Assembly (NCBI GenBank): GCA_964016885.1
Contig: OZ024747.1
Span: 46,314,001-46,378,000 of the forward strand
Direction of reading: 5' to 3'
Length of the DNA stretch: 64,000 bases
From: Eledone cirrhosa
Taxonomy: Eukaryota
The notes below the pieces were generated by a model. The model did no database searches. It worked only from the letters and a program-made list of their open reading frames with translations, and had not been told where the DNA came from. Both the position numbers and the translations under genes were made by a program. Shown here piece after piece: positions 8,358 to 48,058 of the stretch. Within the stretch, counting starts at the first letter, position 1; each line of letters opens with the position of its first letter.

Positions 8358-8481
8358 AATTTTTTAATATAAGGAACTTGTTCTTTGTTTTTATTCATTA
8401 TTTTTATTAATTTATATATATATATTTCGTTTCTGAATTTGTTTAGCAAGATTCTTTATCTGAAAACGTGTGTTGAAACCG

Positions 8482-9000
8482 ATATTGTTATAATTTGGGA
8501 GGGTCATGTTGCCAATAAGAAACACACGCACCAGTTGCTTTCACTTCAATTTATTATAATAAATTTATAAATTTAGGAATTTATAAATTTCCGGTTGGTT
8601 GGTTGGTTCCACAACCAGATGGTTGTTTGTATATTGTCAAAGTTCTTTCGTCACACATTCTGTGACCTCTTCAGTCACTGGGGATTCTTTTCTTTGTTTT
8701 TGTGCTTCTTCTTTGTTCTGTCCTACGCCATCTTGTTTCTGTCACACACAGAAACAAGATGGCGTAGGAGAGAACAAAGGAGAGGCACAAAAACAAAGAA
8801 AAGAATCCCCAGTCACTGAAGAGGTCACAGAATGTGTGACGAAAGAACTTTGACAATATACAAACAACCATCTGGTTGTGGAACCAACCAACCAACCGGA
8901 AATTTATAAATTCCTAAATTTATAAATTTATTATAATAAATTGAAGTGAAAGCAACTGGTGCGTGTGTTTCTTATTGGCAACATGACCCTCCCAAAGTAT

Positions 9001-17969: not shown

Positions 17970-19254
17970 CTATCTATCTAAGGCGGGTAAAATTCCCGAG
18001 ATCCATGGACGAGTTCTCTCCAGCGGTCTCTGTCCCTCATTATCGCTGCCATATCCTGCATCTCCAACAGATCAGTGTCTGTCCTTAGGGCATCAACATA
18101 TGTTAACCTTGGTCTTCCTCTTCTAGTGTGTCCATGTAGGGGCTCCCAAAGGAGCACTGAGTGCAATGTCAACTCCGGATGTCGGTGAGCATGTCCAGCC
18201 AACCTCAGTCTCCTCTGTGTCCCTTTTGAGCTGACTCTTGGGGTGCTCCCATACAGCTCTGAGTTTTTCATCCTCAGTGTATACTGATTAATGTTCAGAG
18301 CCATCCTCAACATTCTCGTGTAGCACCCATCCACCATCTGAGTGAGTTTCTTGGTCAGTGTCCAAGTCTCAGACCCATACAGCAGCACAGACTCCACTAC
18401 AGCAATGGAGAGGCGGATTTTCAGGTCTCTACGAAGGTCCGACTTCCACACCGATCTCAAGCTGTGGCACGCCGCCCAGGCCTTGCTCTTCCTCTCAACC
18501 ACATCATCCTCCGTATTCCCAATCTTTGCTCCCAAATACAGGAAGTCCTCAACCAATTCCAGCGGCTTCCCGCCTACATTAGTGATCCCCTCTGGCTTCT
18601 CAACATTCTCTACCAGATATTTTGTTTTAGTCTCATTCATTCTCAGCCCCACACTCATCGACACAGTCTCAACCTCCCGCATCAAATCCTCTGCCTCCTT
18701 CACTGTATTTGTCACCAAAACTATGTCGTCGGCAAAATCAGCATCCGATACCTTTTTCGCCCCAACTCTCCTGCTCTGAGCCGGTGCTACAGTAACAACT
18801 ACCGGGGGATCTAACTGACGTCACTTGTGGCAAAGACCCTCAACAGGATGATTCTTAACAGGATCCAGCCTGAGATGGAGAAGAAGCTCAGGGACAACCA
18901 GAACGGCTTCAGAGAGGGTAGATCAACCACCAGTCACATCCTGATGCTGAGGAGGATATTAGAGGGAGCTAGAGCAAAGTGCCTTCCTGCGGTCATGGTT
19001 TTCATTGACTTTAGGAAGGCCTTTGATTCTGTGGACCGTTACTGCCTGATGAAGATCTTACAGGCTTATGGAATCCCCAAGAGGATAGTGGACCTGATAT
19101 CACTGCTCTACACCAACACCAAAGCCCAAGTCATTACACCTGATGGGATGACAGAGTTCTTTGAGATACTGGCTGGAGTGCTCCAGGGAGATACATTGGC
19201 TCCCTACCTTTTTATCATCGTAGTGGACTATTGTATGCGCCTTGCACTGGAGAA
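17970..19254. mobile_element. RTE-clade LINE, 5'-truncated with 5' inversion; TSD ACATATAGATAT (17958-17969 / 19255-19266)
   Basis: The 3' part is on the minus strand ending in a (TAGA)n tail; the upstream RT part is on the plus strand; the junction is at ~18812. Confidence 0.92.
17978..18810 (-). pseudogene. RTE reverse transcriptase C-terminal portion
   Basis: VSDADFADDIVLV (catalytic FADD), GLRMNETKTKY, DFLYLG, VVESVLLYGSETWTL, RRLRLAGH, RRGRPRLTYVD, DRDRWRELV. Confidence 0.92.
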
Positions 19255-19257
19255 ACA
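18815..19257 (+). pseudogene. RTE reverse transcriptase N-terminal portion (inverted segment)
   Basis: KTLNRMILNRI, QNGFREGRST, FIDFRKAFDSVD, GVLQGDTLAPYLF. Confidence 0.95.
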
Positions 19258-19393
19258 TATAGATATATACCCCCATATATATATATATATAACCAAAGAT
19301 TAGTATGATTCGTTGATTACTCAACGAATACAATTTTACAATAGATTAGAAGCACACAACAGAATAAGGTTTTCCTGGAGTTTTTAATATTAT

Positions 19394-19803
19394 TCAAAAT
19401 GTTAACAAATGAAAAATATTATCATAATCAAAATATATACTTTATTATATATACTTCAAAGGTACTGTGTTTTTTTTTTTCAGTAAGTCCTCATCAGACA
19501 AAATATCTGATTTGATATATGACATACTGCTACAGTCTTGATTATTCAATTCCAGTATTAGCAGTCAATACTGGAATTGAAATATCTGCCAATATATATA
19601 TCTAAATTATCAGTCAATACTGGAATTGAAATATCTGCCAATACTGGAATTGAATAATCAAGACTGTAGCGCTATGTCATATATCAAATCATATATTTTG
19701 TCTGATGAGGACGTACTGAAAAAACAACACAGTACCTTTGAAATATATATAATAAAGAATATATTTTGATTATGAGAATATTTTTCATTTGTTAATATTT
19801 TGA
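19394..19803. mobile_element. Foldback element (~165-bp arms) with hammerhead-like cores and micro-duplicated spacer
   Basis: 19394-19559 is the reverse complement of ~19641-19803; tgt-CTGATGA-ggacgtact-GAAA...aca at 19699-19731; the spacer repeats caatactggaattgaa three times. Confidence 0.85.
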
Positions 19804-20146
19804 GTTTTGGGGGGTCTTATTCACGCAAGTGTCTAATCTTTTATTTTCTCAAACCCACGAAGACTAGGCTTTTTTTTTAGAAGCGGCCTTTACTCGCCTC
19901 GTTATAGCTACATCACTGGGTTGTGAGAGTTTTCTTGGGAGCTACAGGTGTCACCCATTGCTCCATCTCCCCTAGTAGTTTACTGCTATTCGTCCGGGGT
20001 TGCTTATTCGTCCGACAGCTACCCGCATATATTTTAAATCCCCACCATATTTGGGGGCCGTATCGCTACCCGACACCTGCAATCCGTTCTCAAGCAGAAC
20101 AGCTCTGCCGAGAATATATATATATATAAATATATGGTGATAGGGT

Positions 20147-20218
20147 GATGTATTGGTGTAAATGGTAGCACAGTGGTCTGGATAACCAAAGATGTGGGTT
20201 CGACTCCCATGTACGTCA
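20147..20218 (+). other. tRNA-like cloverleaf (probable SINE head), nominal anticodon GGA
   Basis: Acceptor GATGTAT/GTACGTC, D arm GTGT-aaatggta-GCAC, anticodon arm gTGGT-ctggata-ACCAa, T arm GTGGG-TTCGACT-CCCAT. It lacks the Ser long variable arm and runs into a repeated tail. Confidence 0.7.
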
Positions 20219-20362
20219 ATACTCATCTTTTTCCATTTCTCCGACGGTTCTTAACCCCACTATCAGGCTAAATAATTTCTTTAATTTCTTTAGTCAAAAT
20301 ACGGCGATAGCTTACATTTATAATAATTTCAAACCCGCTCGCTGTTTCGAAAAATATTCTTA
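20208..20362 (+). mobile_element. Tail shared with the 28.5-28.8 kb foldback, ending at (TA)n
   Basis: catgtacgtcaatactcatctttttccatttctccga...ttagtcaaaatacggcgatagct...gctgtttcgaaaa matches both arms at 28530-28812. Confidence 0.9.
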
Positions 20363-42399: not shown

Positions 42400-42618
42400 T
42401 AAAATAAAATAAAATAAATAAGTCAAATGTTTAAAATTTGGCTTCGTTTATTACTGCTATATATATTTCGGTGACAGCCATCTTTGGCTGTGACCTCTTC
42501 AGGAAGTCCTAATTCGGACTGCCTGAAGAGGTCACAGCCAAAGATGGCTGTCACCGAAATATATATAGCAGTAATAAACGAAGCCAAATTTTAAACATTT
42601 GACTTATTTATTTTATTT

Positions 42619-42625
<7 letters not shown>
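42400..42625. mobile_element. ~225-bp foldback with two outward-facing hammerheads, ending in (TA)n
   Basis: Arms 42400-42509 and 42516-42625 are near-perfect reverse complements; loop taattc. Confidence 0.95.
42518..42572 (+). ncRNA. Intact type I hammerhead ribozyme (mirror copy on minus strand at 42453-42507)
   Basis: ACTGC-CTGAAGA-GGTCACAGCCA-aaga-TGGCTGTCACC-GAAA-tatata-TA-GCAGT: stem I 5 bp, stem II 10/11 bp, palindromic ATATATAT stem III, triplet AUA. Confidence 0.87.
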
Positions 42626-42761: not shown

Positions 42762-45734
42762 ATATAGAAAGGATAAAAAGGACGATTGATTATTCCTTCA
42801 TTGCATTTATTGATAGGTGACGCGCGTTTCGCCACTGATCAGCTCAAGGTTCGATCTATATCGATCCTACCCGACTCAATAATCGGCAGTTCGACTGACC
42901 CTCTTAAAATGCTATAAGAAAATGAAATACATGCTATGTGGTAAAGTCAGAGTTTCAAGAGTTTGACAAAATGAGATGTTTTGATTGGTGAGAAGGATCA
43001 AGGCGATGTACTGGCCTGTAGTGTATATGGGGGTGGGTGTGATGGTGAGATGTTGGTGACGGTCTGTGGATGAGGTGGGCTGTGGTGTGGTGGTGGTGGG
43101 TTGGCCTTGGCGTGTAGAGTATGTGGGGGTGGATGTGATGATATGGTGGTGGTTAAGGTTATTTAGTGGGATGGGCTGTGGCATGAGTTTAGTGGATTGT
43201 CAGTAGACGGGTTGGCGTGTGGGCGGGGGTGTGGTAGTGGTGCCTTTGTCCATGGTAGCGGCGTTTGTGGTGGTGTGGTGGATGTATTGGTGGCGTCAGG
43301 TCCTTACATAGATACATAGTTAGACGCTCTTCGTCTGACAGATACCTTGTATATACGTATACGTACACACATATATGTATATATGTGCACATATATTGTT
43401 GTATAAACACACACAACATAAAACACATACGCACATCCTTGCCCACACATATCGGCATACGCTCACACACAGCCATATGTATATGTACACACATGTATGT
43501 GCATGCGCGCATGCGGTCACGAATATGGAGAGTGGGGGAGTATCGGTGGGGGTGGTGAACGACAGAGATGGGGGGAAGGTGAGAGGCGATGTAGAAGGTG
43601 TTTTACATATATACATACACATATATACACATGGGTATGGGCACATGGACTCACACTCATGTATGCAAGATATACACATACACACTCGCATACACGTATA
43701 CTCACACATATATATATACATATATATATATATATACACACACATGTACCGACAACACACACACATACACGCACATATACACATACATGCACACATATGA
43801 GCTCACCTACACATACAGTCAGATTTACCCATATACATATATGCAGACATACACATACACACACATACATACACATACATATATACACACACATACACAT
43901 ATGCATACACATACACACACATATATATACAGATATATATATATACACACACATAGGCATATGCATACACATGTGTTCACATTCACACACACACACATAG
44001 AGATAAATTTGCGTACACGCACGCATACTTAAGGCGCCCGTATGAGTAAAATACTTACACACAGACACACACACTATTATTGGTTGGGGAGTGGAGGTAT
44101 GTTTTGTCGGTGTTGATGAAGTATGGAGTTGTGTTTTGTGGTGGTGGTGGTGGAGTTGTGAGGGACAAACATATATATACCGGATCGAATACCGGTTAAA
44201 AGGTGACATAGGGAACGCGGGGAAAAATCGTTTATGGACGTACGGCGATGTGTGTTGTGGACATGGTGATGGTGGTGGTGCTGGGGTGATATGTTCGGCA
44301 AGATGATTACATGATCAGAGGTTACGGTGTGTTATATGGTAGGCAGACGGGGGGTGGGGGGTATATAATACAGTCGATTTGGGAGCGAGGGATGATATGT
44401 GTTGATGATGTAATGATAATGATTGTTGAAGTATGTGGATGTATTTAGTGGTGGCGGTGGTTGTGTGTGCATGCGACAGTACAGTTACAGGGTCGAATTT
44501 AGCGTGGCGTTGCAGGTTAGGGTAGATAGAGGGAACATGGGGGGATGAGGTTGTAGACGTGTATGGTAGACATATGACGATGTGTGGTGTGGTGGTGGTG
44601 GCGATGGTGTGATATGGTCGACATTGTATTTACAACCATGACCCACCATAATAATAACCACACCTGCCCCGTATCACCATCGCCCATCTCAACGAACTTT
44701 AATTCTAATCTAACTTCACTTTATCTTATTTCATTTCATTGAATTTAACCATATGTAAGCCCGTATTTTGTATATCATGCCGCATACATAACCCACACCA
44801 AAAATCACACTAACCATGACACACCATATTAATAACCACCTATACCCCGTCTCAACATCGCCCACCTCAATGAACTTATTGTATTGTACTCCATGTTACC
44901 ATCTCTAAGCCCCCATTTGTATATCATGCCGCACACATCACCATCACCACCACCAAAATTCAGATCAACACACACACCTCATAGTTGCAACATCGTATTA
45001 AATCGGTACCATATGATACGTTCTACCTTGCAATCCACAATGACAAGGGACCTTGTAAATACAATGTCGACCATATCACACCATCGCCACCACCACCACA
45101 CCACACATCGGCATGTGCATACCATACACGCCTACAACCTCAGCCCCCCATGTTCCCTCTATCTACCCTAACCTGCAACCCCACGCTAAATTCGACCCTG
45201 TAACTGTACTGTCGCATGCACACACAACCACCGCCACCACTAAATACATCCACATACTTCAACAATCATTATCATTACATCATCAACATATATCATCCCT
45301 CGCACCCAAATCGACTGTATTATATACCCCCCACCCCCCGTCTGCCTACCATATAACACACCGTAACCTCTGATCATGTAATCCTCTTGCCGAACATATC
45401 ACCCCAGCACCACCACCATCACCATGTCCACAACACACATCGCCGTACGTCCATAAACGATTATCCCCCGCGTTCCCTATGTCACCTTTTAACCGGTATT
45501 CGATCCGGTATGTATATGTTTGTCCCTCACAACTCCACCACCACCACCACAAAACACAACTCCATACTTCATCAACACCGACAAAACATACCTCCACTCC
45601 CCAACCAACAATAGTGTGTGTGTCTGTGTGTAAGTATTTTACTCATACGGGCGTCTTATGTGTGCGTGCGTGTACGCAAATTTATCTCTATGTGTGTGTG
45701 TGTGTATGTGAACACATGTGTATGCATATGCCTA

Positions 45735-45769
<35 letters not shown>

Positions 45770-45954
45770 GTATATATATGTGTGTGTATGTGTATGCATA
45801 TGTGTATGTGTGTGTATATATATGTATGTGTATGTATGTGTGTGTATGTGTATGTCTGCATATATGTATATGGGTAAATCTGACTGTATGTATAGGTTAG
45901 CTCATATATGTGCATGTATGTGTATATGTGCGTGTATGTGTGTGTTGTCGGTAC

Positions 45955-45993
<39 letters not shown>

Positions 45994-46910
45994 AGTATAC
46001 GTGTGTGCGAGTGTGTATGTGTATATCTTGCATACATGAGTGTGAGTCCATGTGCCCATACCCATGTGTATGCATGTGTATGTATATATGTAAAACACCT
46101 TCTACATCGCCTCTCACCTTCCCCCCATCTCTGTCGTTCGCCACCCCCACCGATACTCCCCCACTCTCCATATTCGTGTCTGCATGCGCGCATGCACATA
46201 CATGTGTGTACATATACATATGGCTGTGTGTGAGCGTATGCCGATATGTGTGGGTAAAGATGTGCGTATGTGTTTTATGTTGTGTGTGTTTATACAACAA
46301 TATATGTGCACATATATACATATATGTGTGTACGTATACGTATATACAAGGTATCTGTCAGACGAAGAGCGTCTAACTATGTATCTATGTAAGGACCTGA
46401 CGACCACCACAAACGCCGCTACCATAGACAAAGGCACCACTACCACACCCCCACCCACACGCCAGCCCGTCTACTGACAAACCACTAACCTCATGCCACA
46501 GCCCATCCCACTAAATAACCTTAACCACCACCATATCATCACATCCACCCCCACATACTCTACACGCCAAAGCCAACCCACCACCACCACCACACCACAG
46601 CCCACCTCATCCACAGACCGTCACCAACATCTCACCATCACACCCACCCCCATATACACTACAGGCCAGTACATCGCCTTGATCCTTCTCACCAATCAAA
46701 ACATCTCATTTTGTCAAACTCTTGAAACTCTGACTTTACCACATAGCATGTATTTCATTTTCTTATAGCATTTTAAGAGGGTCAGTCGAGCTGCCGATTA
46801 TTCAGTCGGGTAGGATCGATATAGATCGAACCTTGAGCTGATCAGTGGCGAAACGCGCGTCACCTATCAATAAATGCAATGAAGGAATAATCAATCGTCC
46901 TTTTTATCCT

Positions 46911-46918
<8 letters not shown>
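42762..46918. mobile_element. 4.2-kb foldback element: ~1.87-kb arms (42762-44635, 45053-46918) and ~420-bp spacer
   Basis: Arms are highly similar reverse complements (mirror ORF pairs in the track); each outer end carries GAAACGCGCGTC plus AATAAA; the right end runs into (TA)n. Confidence 0.95.
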
Positions 46919-46951
<33 letters not shown>

Positions 46952-46954
<3 letters not shown>

Positions 46955-47684
46955 AGATAAGCAGAACAAGTAAAAATTCAATCAATTTTTCAAAATAAAT
47001 CAATTAATATACAATCAAAATTAATCAAAATTAAAAAATATAATATAAATATTTACCTATTCTAATGGCCCTAACTGTACAGTTTCACGGTGCAAAACAT
47101 TAAATATCACCAGGATATTAATGGAAAAGCAACGATCATCAGAGAAGCATTTTCCTGTCCTAGGGTTAAAAACCCCAGGAACGACAAAATATATGACCTC
47201 ACTCCAACTAATACAGGTCTAAAAGGTCGTGAAAGTGACCCGTAAATACATTGGTGTATAGTGAAGGCGGGAAATCGTAGACTCGCCGTCTATAGCTCGC
47301 CACTAAAAAAAGATTTTTAGTAACTAAATATAACGACAAAATTTGTATCTCTACATATGGAGATTATTGAAAAAGGTTAATATATATCTGAGGGTACAAT
47401 GTACCCCCGGAAATATATAGTGTGTCTATGATTTAAGGTGGTTCTATGGTAATAATTTGATATACCAGAACATAATGTCAAGATAAGCAGAACAAGTAAA
47501 AATTCAATCAATTTTTCAAAATAAATCAAAATTAATATACAATCAAAATTAATCAAAATTAAAAAATATAATATAAATATTTACCTATTCTAATGGCCCT
47601 AACTGTACAGTTTCACGGTGCAAAACATTAAATATCACCAGGATATTAATGGAAAAGCAACGAACATCAGAGAAGCATTTTCCT
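46952..47684 (-). mobile_element. Retrozyme/pLTR-like element: ~205-bp direct repeats, each with a hammerhead, period 526-528, between (TA)n tracts
   Basis: Repeats at 46952-47156 and 47478-47684; no ORF of note in the interior. Confidence 0.9.
47064..47151 (-). ncRNA. Type I hammerhead ribozyme (second copy 47592-47679 has core CTGATGT)
   Basis: Minus strand: aatgcTTCT-CTGATGA-T-CGTTGC..cattaa.tatc..gata.ttaatg..GCACCG-T-GAAA-CTG-ta-CAG-TT-AGGGccatt; palindromic stem III ACTGTACAGT; triplet GUU. Confidence 0.82.
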
Positions 47685-47685
47685 T

Positions 47686-48058
<373 letters not shown>

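Follow-up and report, generated by a model that had tools for sequence, protein, structure and literature searches.

The stretch at 46952-47684 of the window (the whole 64,000-nt piece of Eledone cirrhosa DNA that was analysed) consists of 1.39 copies of a 526-nt monomer, and the apparent terminal repeats are a partial second copy, that is, a pseudo-LTR; the layout is a partial tandem truncated at random on its 5' side. Within its genome the locus is nothing unusual, hundreds of copies of this young non-coding repeat, here called family A, being present. On the evidence of its sequences and junctions, the family is in all probability a non-autonomous retrozyme of the non-LTR kind, mobilised by Penelope-like elements (PLEs); that its mobilisation passes through a circular intermediate is the favoured, though considerably less secure, part of this reading.

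Anatomy of the locus and of its copies in the genome

The features of the locus to which the text refers are the following (positions are those of the window).

46952..47477, minus strand: complete family A monomer of 526 nt, up to the fixed main 3' end (...TCTTGA, followed by (TA)n)
47478..47684, minus strand: 5'-truncated upstream copy, equal to the last 207 nt of the monomer; pseudo-LTR
47368..47477, minus strand: first ~110 nt of the monomer, which form the "tail" between the two fixed 3' ends of other insertions; here internal only
46914..46951, no strand: (TA)n target tract at the 3' junction, common to the neighbouring element D, tail-to-tail
47685..48030, no strand: TA-rich microsatellite at the 5' junction
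46964..47062, minus strand: long hairpin (arms 47052-47062 and 46964-46974) lying between the cut site and the main 3' end; maintained, with compensatory changes, in three families
47069..47146, minus strand: downstream type I hammerhead with intact core; predicted cut between 47073 and 47072
47143-47146/47069-47072, minus strand: stem I of the downstream hammerhead, 4 bp
47136-47142, minus strand: core CTGATGA of the downstream hammerhead
47129-47135/47087-47093, minus strand: base of stem II of the downstream hammerhead, with U.U at 10.1/11.1
47083-47086, minus strand: GAAA of the downstream hammerhead
47074-47083, minus strand: stem III palindrome of the downstream hammerhead
47597..47674, minus strand: upstream hammerhead with A9U, core at 47664-47670 (CTGATGT); predicted cut between 47601 and 47600

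Between the direct repeats, 46952-47156 (205 bp) and 47478-47684 (207 bp), the only differences are one substitution and an indel of 2 nt; the first-pass annotation had described them as two repeats of about 205 bp, each holding a minus-strand hammerhead, around a non-coding interior with (TA)n on both sides, and all of these points are borne out. The monomer has a GC content of 31.6% and, when tripled, its longest ATG frames are of 10 aa in the sense and 33 aa in the antisense direction; with frames of this size (<=33 aa), an ORF with RT and GIY-YIG is absent from the unit. Any 4-bp target duplication would be masked by the (TA)n flanks. The monomer had been given a length of 528 nt, which is correct for the distance between the two predicted cuts (H17 lies at 47073 and at 47601), whereas the full unit measures 526 nt, because the upstream copy carries two extra bases; the same two positions, originally assigned to stem III, do adjoin it, but are the coordinates of H17.

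In the 3.0-Gb genome, copies of family A are scattered across many contigs, the arrays being short and their ends polar. A DNA search gave 42 near-full matches with 97-100% identity (best 40 of 1400 candidates scored), while the exact ribozyme 27-mer occurs 219 times and the exact 3' junction with (TA)n 374 times. The anatomy of the insertions was read from 98 distinct junctions, taken from the first 100 by position among these 374, a sample in which the 3' end at (TA)n is fixed by how the loci were picked. Insert lengths range from 23 to 1513 nt, the two shortest being rearranged copies: 54 insertions are under one unit, 39 measure one to two units and five are over two, which gives 44 exceeding one unit; an inverted 5'-truncated arm is present at 26 of the 98 junctions. 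The LTR-like character originally ascribed to the repeats does not survive this comparison, an upstream piece of 195-215 nt being found in 2/98 insertions and two complete hammerheads in direct tandem in 15/98; the lack of the repeat-interior-repeat layout in other genomic copies had been named beforehand as the observation that would refute the interpretation, and this observation is the one made in these 98 insertions, where the layout is not general. The fixed main 3' end is not a mere product of the sampling, because loci picked by their interior show the same end: 27 of 30 end at the main site beside a TA tract and one at the tail, the remaining two lying within arrays shown twice or ending 2 nt later. 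At the other side, 84 of the 99 non-inverted 5' junctions from a wider, partly biased set of 126 junctions are TA-rich.

Hammerhead motifs and conserved RNA structure

Each repeat contains, on the minus strand, the 5' arm of stem I, the core, an extended stem II, GAAA, the palindrome ACTGTACAGT and a GUU triplet; the stem III palindrome ACUGUACAGU precedes the GUU triplet in both hammerheads, stem II is extended in both by a second hairpin, and the strand order of both motifs is that of type I, not of type III. Read as RNA, the core is CUGAUGA downstream and CUGAUGU upstream, so that the A9-to-U change (A9U) reported earlier for one of the copies is confirmed; a U.U mismatch at 10.1/11.1, replacing the usual G-C in both hammerheads, had been overlooked. 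The motifs are not due to chance, because a strict hammerhead scan returned three matches in the window and none in 100 shuffles, and because the stems covary across families (see below). Rfam gave no hammerhead match for either motif, even at E<=10 on 1 kb, its output otherwise consisting of simple-repeat miRNA noise, a tRNA and one 16.6-bit match on the neighbour.

By free energy, the isolated hammerhead segment does not adopt the hammerhead fold (z +1.66): its energy is -8.6 kcal/mol when constrained to the hammerhead and -14.5 kcal/mol when free, other folds being preferred. On the 733-nt locus transcript a double hammerhead reaches -176.9 kcal/mol, two single folds -165.3 and the free minimum -192.2; the double hammerhead is 11.6 kcal/mol better than the two single folds, in agreement with the initial suggestion that tandem hammerheads with a palindromic stem III are suited to dimeric cleavage, and the active fold lies 15 kcal/mol above the free minimum. 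A9 is required for hammerhead catalysis. In the modelled double fold the mutant core would serve the downstream site and in the single fold its own, one cut being impaired either way; this copy would probably make one cut in cis and yield no unit-length RNA, which makes it unlikely to release the monomer by itself, and the earlier reading of the locus as half active can be retained in the form that it is probably half-dead. The genome-wide view of the cores, proposed as a check when A9U was noticed, shows them intact in most parsed copies: CTGATGA is found in 127 of the 139 copies parsed out of 145 ribozyme-region copies, with two more mis-registered by the script, A9U is private to this locus in the same set, and some other loci carry two intact cores. 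An intact hammerhead in every repeat, which Li et al. (10.64898/2026.07.22.740005) take as the mark of an active copy, is not present here, the upstream core carrying A9U.

Two sister families share the insertion anatomy of family A: family B (485 nt, 108 exact matches in the genome; loci L091-L120), to which public contigs gave the lead, and family C (466 nt, best 40 of 2406 candidates scored; loci L260-L299), the lead to which came from a flank. Identities are 75% between A and B, 59% between A and C and 62% between B and C. Family C has a stem III palindrome of odd length that is imperfect, and the 5' edge of this palindrome, which precedes the cut site by 12 nt, is where three of the family's arms start; at 10.1/11.1, families A and C are characterised by U.U and family B mostly by G-C. 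Covariation was assessed on 19 hand-picked, diverse copies from the three families. In these the core is invariant except for N7, H17 is U or A, among the allowed bases, and stem III is palindromic or nearly so; 93% of the stem cells pair, and changes on both sides are seen in 60 cells, the shuffles having 22 and the slid controls 0-20. Counted by pairs (10 with both-side changes), the figure is not above that of shuffles. These counts probably reflect few independent events, the three families being related. RNAalifold recovered stems II and III and the 3' hairpin, not stem I, and this 3' hairpin is a candidate recognition signal for the reverse transcriptase. The folds of the circular monomer beat shuffles in all three families, with z -7.2 (family A, 40 shuffles), -4.8 and -4.5.

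Two fixed 3' ends, the helper and the template

The main 3' end lies 121 nt past the cut site. In inverted (head-to-head) insertions of family A, one arm ends at this main site and the other about 100-110 nt further in 22 of 26 cases, the remaining four being rearranged or without tail; such paired ends recur in 9/9 inverted insertions of family B, 103 nt apart, and in 15/17 of family C, 106 nt apart, both samples having been selected on a motif or on the highest score. The tail between the two fixed ends is thus about 105 nt long in A, B and C; its junctions were read directly in family A, where one exact form of tail joined to (TA)n gives 23 pattern matches genome-wide. Partial tandems, inverted arms, a tail at one end and a microsatellite bias are given as PLE traits (PMC8557442); for a purified PLE, the tail has been described as the stretch between two internal RT start sites, cleavage as preferring AT-rich DNA and hammerhead cleavage as dispensable for insertion in vitro, two fixed internal 3' ends with a tail being regarded as unique to PLEs (PMC11167929). 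The Penelope-derivative features present here are variable 5' truncation, inverted arms, the two-site tail and TA targeting; the tail, at about 105 nt, exceeds the 30-40 bp of these papers and the 39-55 nt of two local autonomous families.

As to the possible helpers, a GIY-YIG search gave 10,596 candidates, the best 150 of which were scored; 20 long-frame loci fall by inspection into at least seven PLE families with RT, cysteine linker and GIY-YIG, the label "Neptune type" resting on the linker described in PMC8557442, not on a tree. In five PLE families the element terminates at (TA)n, 115-203 nt beyond a hammerhead-like motif whose stem III is palindromic; two of these five also carry U.U at 10.1/11.1, and some carry the U3-A8 core variant of PMC4209133. 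By nhmmer, none of 50 GIY-YIG loci out of the 10,596 candidates contains an autonomous element sharing sequence with A, B or C, and the only match obtained with blastn and nhmmer over these 50 loci is a separate family C insertion; a search for short-stem-II variants gave six matches, none of which is an autonomous partner by nhmmer or match inspection, and the pattern of a Neptune-type stem III plus 3' hairpin gave one match, counted from the pattern alone. On the minus strand of L240 (G000:C1:145870300-145876000) lies a near full-length PLE in partial tandem, with a 938-aa frame containing RT and GIY-YIG, a 3' region of ~1.4 kb and a hammerhead with the U3-A8 core variant in both pLTRs, ~4.98 kb apart.

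The machinery borrowed by family A would be the RT and the GIY-YIG endonuclease of a PLE, probably of the Zn-finger-linker (Neptune) type. A tandem copy would be transcribed by read-through; two hammerheads, as their conservation suggests, would pair via the palindromic stem III and excise a monomer of ~526 nt, which a host ligase, by analogy with other retrozymes, would circularise. A PLE protein, a putative agent acting at an observed target and at observed ends, would nick (TA)n, reverse transcription starting at one of two internal sites, ~121 and ~230 nt past the cut. To judge from the pattern of the insertions, copying would stop randomly after 0.05 to 3 rounds, sometimes proceeding from both target strands, with partial tandems and inverted arms as the outcome; the locus would be a 1.39-round product, in which A9U would have arisen after or during insertion. 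With respect to cleavage, the axolotl retrozyme hammerhead with U.U has been found to cleave weakly alone and better as a dimer (PMC7229834), and of nine Xenopus retrozyme dimers eight failed to cleave (Li et al. preprint, 10.64898/2026.07.22.740005).

Since copying goes through the cut site and on past the main end, the template would be either circular or multimeric. Units within one insertion differ by 1.31%, versus 4.35% between insertions, and of 1517 comparisons between units of the same insertion at 51 common polymorphic sites, 45 show a difference, 623 being expected; units within an insertion agree at diagnostic sites, and each insertion therefore comes from one haplotype. One haplotype per insertion would fit a circle, and a homogeneous linear multimer would explain the identity within insertions equally well. 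The circular template is the one we consider likelier. In the main rival explanation, which is less probable and nevertheless has to be taken seriously, the family and the PLE enzyme are the same, while the template is an uncut linear multimer, the hammerhead serves to trim 5' ends or to bind protein, and no circle is formed. Insertions of up to ~3 units exist and could be the sources of such a template; nevertheless, 93 of the 98 loci are under two units, so that few could template inserts of two to three units plus the tail. The neighbouring family D, young and abundant with a non-canonical core, is in favour of this rival; against it is the catalytic core of A, B and C, which stays unchanged through ~40% divergence apart from N7 and H17, both varying within the allowed bases. 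Finally, among the 27 forward arms of inverted insertions in family A, four have their start no more than 2 nt from the cut site, an excess (binomial p between 5e-5 and 7e-3, depending on the counting of arms) which is a hint only of some linear templates beginning there; the pile-up is absent in B (0/18 arms) and C (0/34), both biased samples, and the pooled p is 0.01. The clustering of 5' ends 9-22 nt beyond the cut site was discounted as evidence of cleavage, because the stretch resembles (TA)n and alignments run into the flank; back-splice-like junction reads, for their part, cannot discriminate, because on sequence grounds the junction of a circle is identical to that of a genomic tandem.

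A SINE-like element mobilised by a LINE, with tandems arising from template jumps, is very unlikely. It would fit a fixed 3' end, truncation on the 5' side, inversions and a hairpin near the 3' end, all of them LINE/SINE traits too, and LINE RT fragments are present in the window; on the other hand, the unit has no tRNA head and no B box, and no poly(A) tail is seen among the junctions displayed. Paired internal 3' ends with a tail are moreover described as PLE-only in PMC11167929, by which the LINE-based reading is largely refuted. Still less likely is a satellite or other DNA-level duplication (slippage, unequal crossover, rolling-circle DNA) in which the ribozyme would be incidental: an AT-rich tandem repeat in a microsatellite-rich genome would suit it, whereas dispersal over many contigs, short arrays, polar ends and selection on the RNA structure of one strand, with G-U-tolerant changes, would not. 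The polar ends and the RNA covariation refute this reading as things stand. A true LTR retrozyme with fixed LTRs, as in plants, has a negligible probability, the repeat-interior-repeat look of this locus being set against an upstream repeat whose length varies freely (the 98-insertion sample refutes this reading), a hammerhead of type I and not type III, and element ends AGGAAA...TCTTGA, not TG...CA.

Neighbouring elements and comparison with known systems

Element D, which ends in the same TA tract as the retrozyme locus, is made of two 1.5-kb head-to-head arms, 45401-46912 (+) and 42768-44287 (-), 95.5% alike; a hammerhead-shaped motif at ~46779-46870 comprises the palindrome ACGCGCGT, GUC and the core CAGTCGA at 46783-46789. 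The best 40 of 2342 candidates scored are, by score alone, 98-100% identical over 223 nt, and public contigs have mostly C at 46784 of the element, with no change listed at 46786; the non-canonical core seems to be family-wide, and a relative with intact CTGACGA is found at L239. Element D represents a PLE-type family, young and abundant, whose ribozyme is broken or rewired; its link to the GIY-YIG ORF in L077 was checked and rejected. Hammerhead-like motifs are common in the genome, and relics belonging to other families occur in the window at 42420-42620, 8480-8960, 19702-19760 (+), ~20453 (-) and ~4545 (-), two of them being inverted pairs. The window also contains a tRNA-Ser-like sequence at 20146-20219 (+), possibly the head of a SINE, and, at 17978-19303, two LINE-type reverse transcriptase fragments on opposite strands which resemble a 5'-inverted insertion.

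The mobilisation of retrozymes by PLEs is so far a proposal, the link between the two having been inferred from co-occurrence and pLTR similarity only (PMC7229834; 10.64898/2026.07.22.740005), and the role of the hammerheads in PLEs is stated as unclear (PMC8557442). The value of the families described here is that of a test system, which offers an RNA of 526 nt whose two start sites are mapped and whose 3' hairpin is conserved, together with three diverged families; the co-resident PLEs with long open frames allow tests of trans-mobilisation and of circle versus linear templates. It is tempting, if rather doubtful, to go further and propose that the anatomy of A, B and C alone shows PLE copying from two internal starts, on a circle made by the hammerhead, with cut-site junctions recording cleavage in the germ line. 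If this were true, selection would be acting on the ribozyme in the parasites even as an abundant family next to them spreads with its core broken, and the two would form a natural contrast by which the purpose of PLE hammerheads could be tested.

Non-LTR retrozymes have been proposed to derive from PLEs (Li, Clavereau and Pollet 2026, 10.64898/2026.07.22.740005). Those of animals (PMC7229834; 10.64898/2026.07.22.740005) likewise consist of a non-coding, low-GC tandem unit with one type I hammerhead, a strongly self-paired predicted circle and a stem III of the dimer type, and have PLEs in the same genome; axolotl HHR_Amex2 has the same U.U at the base of stem II, and mussel retrozymes are described as lacking loop 1-loop 2 tertiary contacts (both PMC7229834). 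The unit of 526 nt compares with ~170-400 nt in PMC7229834 and lies within the 51-972 nt of 10.64898/2026.07.22.740005. In contrast to the animal retrozymes described, the present copies are mostly dispersed partial tandems, not long arrays, stem II has a second hairpin, and a sequence match to an autonomous pLTR is missing in the 50 GIY-YIG loci. The sections consulted of PMC7229834 and 10.64898/2026.07.22.740005 describe no tails or inverted arms for retrozymes; in the literature searched, mainly open-access, neither family A nor such tails and arms in retrozymes were found described, and the preprint supplements may list similar families.

With the Neptune-type GIY-YIG PLEs (PMC8557442, PMC4209133, PMC11167929) family A shares the pseudo-LTR, the heavy 5' truncation, the inverted 5' arm, the one-end tail, the microsatellite targeting and a hammerhead with palindromic helix III upstream of the 3' end, the differences being the lack of an ORF and a tail of ~105 nt versus 30-40 bp. 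The plant LTR retrozymes have two hammerhead-bearing repeats around a non-coding interior, a likeness confined to this one locus, and PBS/PPT, a 4-bp target duplication and a Gypsy helper (via PMC7229834, 10.64898/2026.07.22.740005); their hammerheads are of type III and their LTRs fixed, whereas here a type I hammerhead is combined with an upstream repeat of variable length. On all family-level features open to sequence analysis, family A matches a non-LTR retrozyme.
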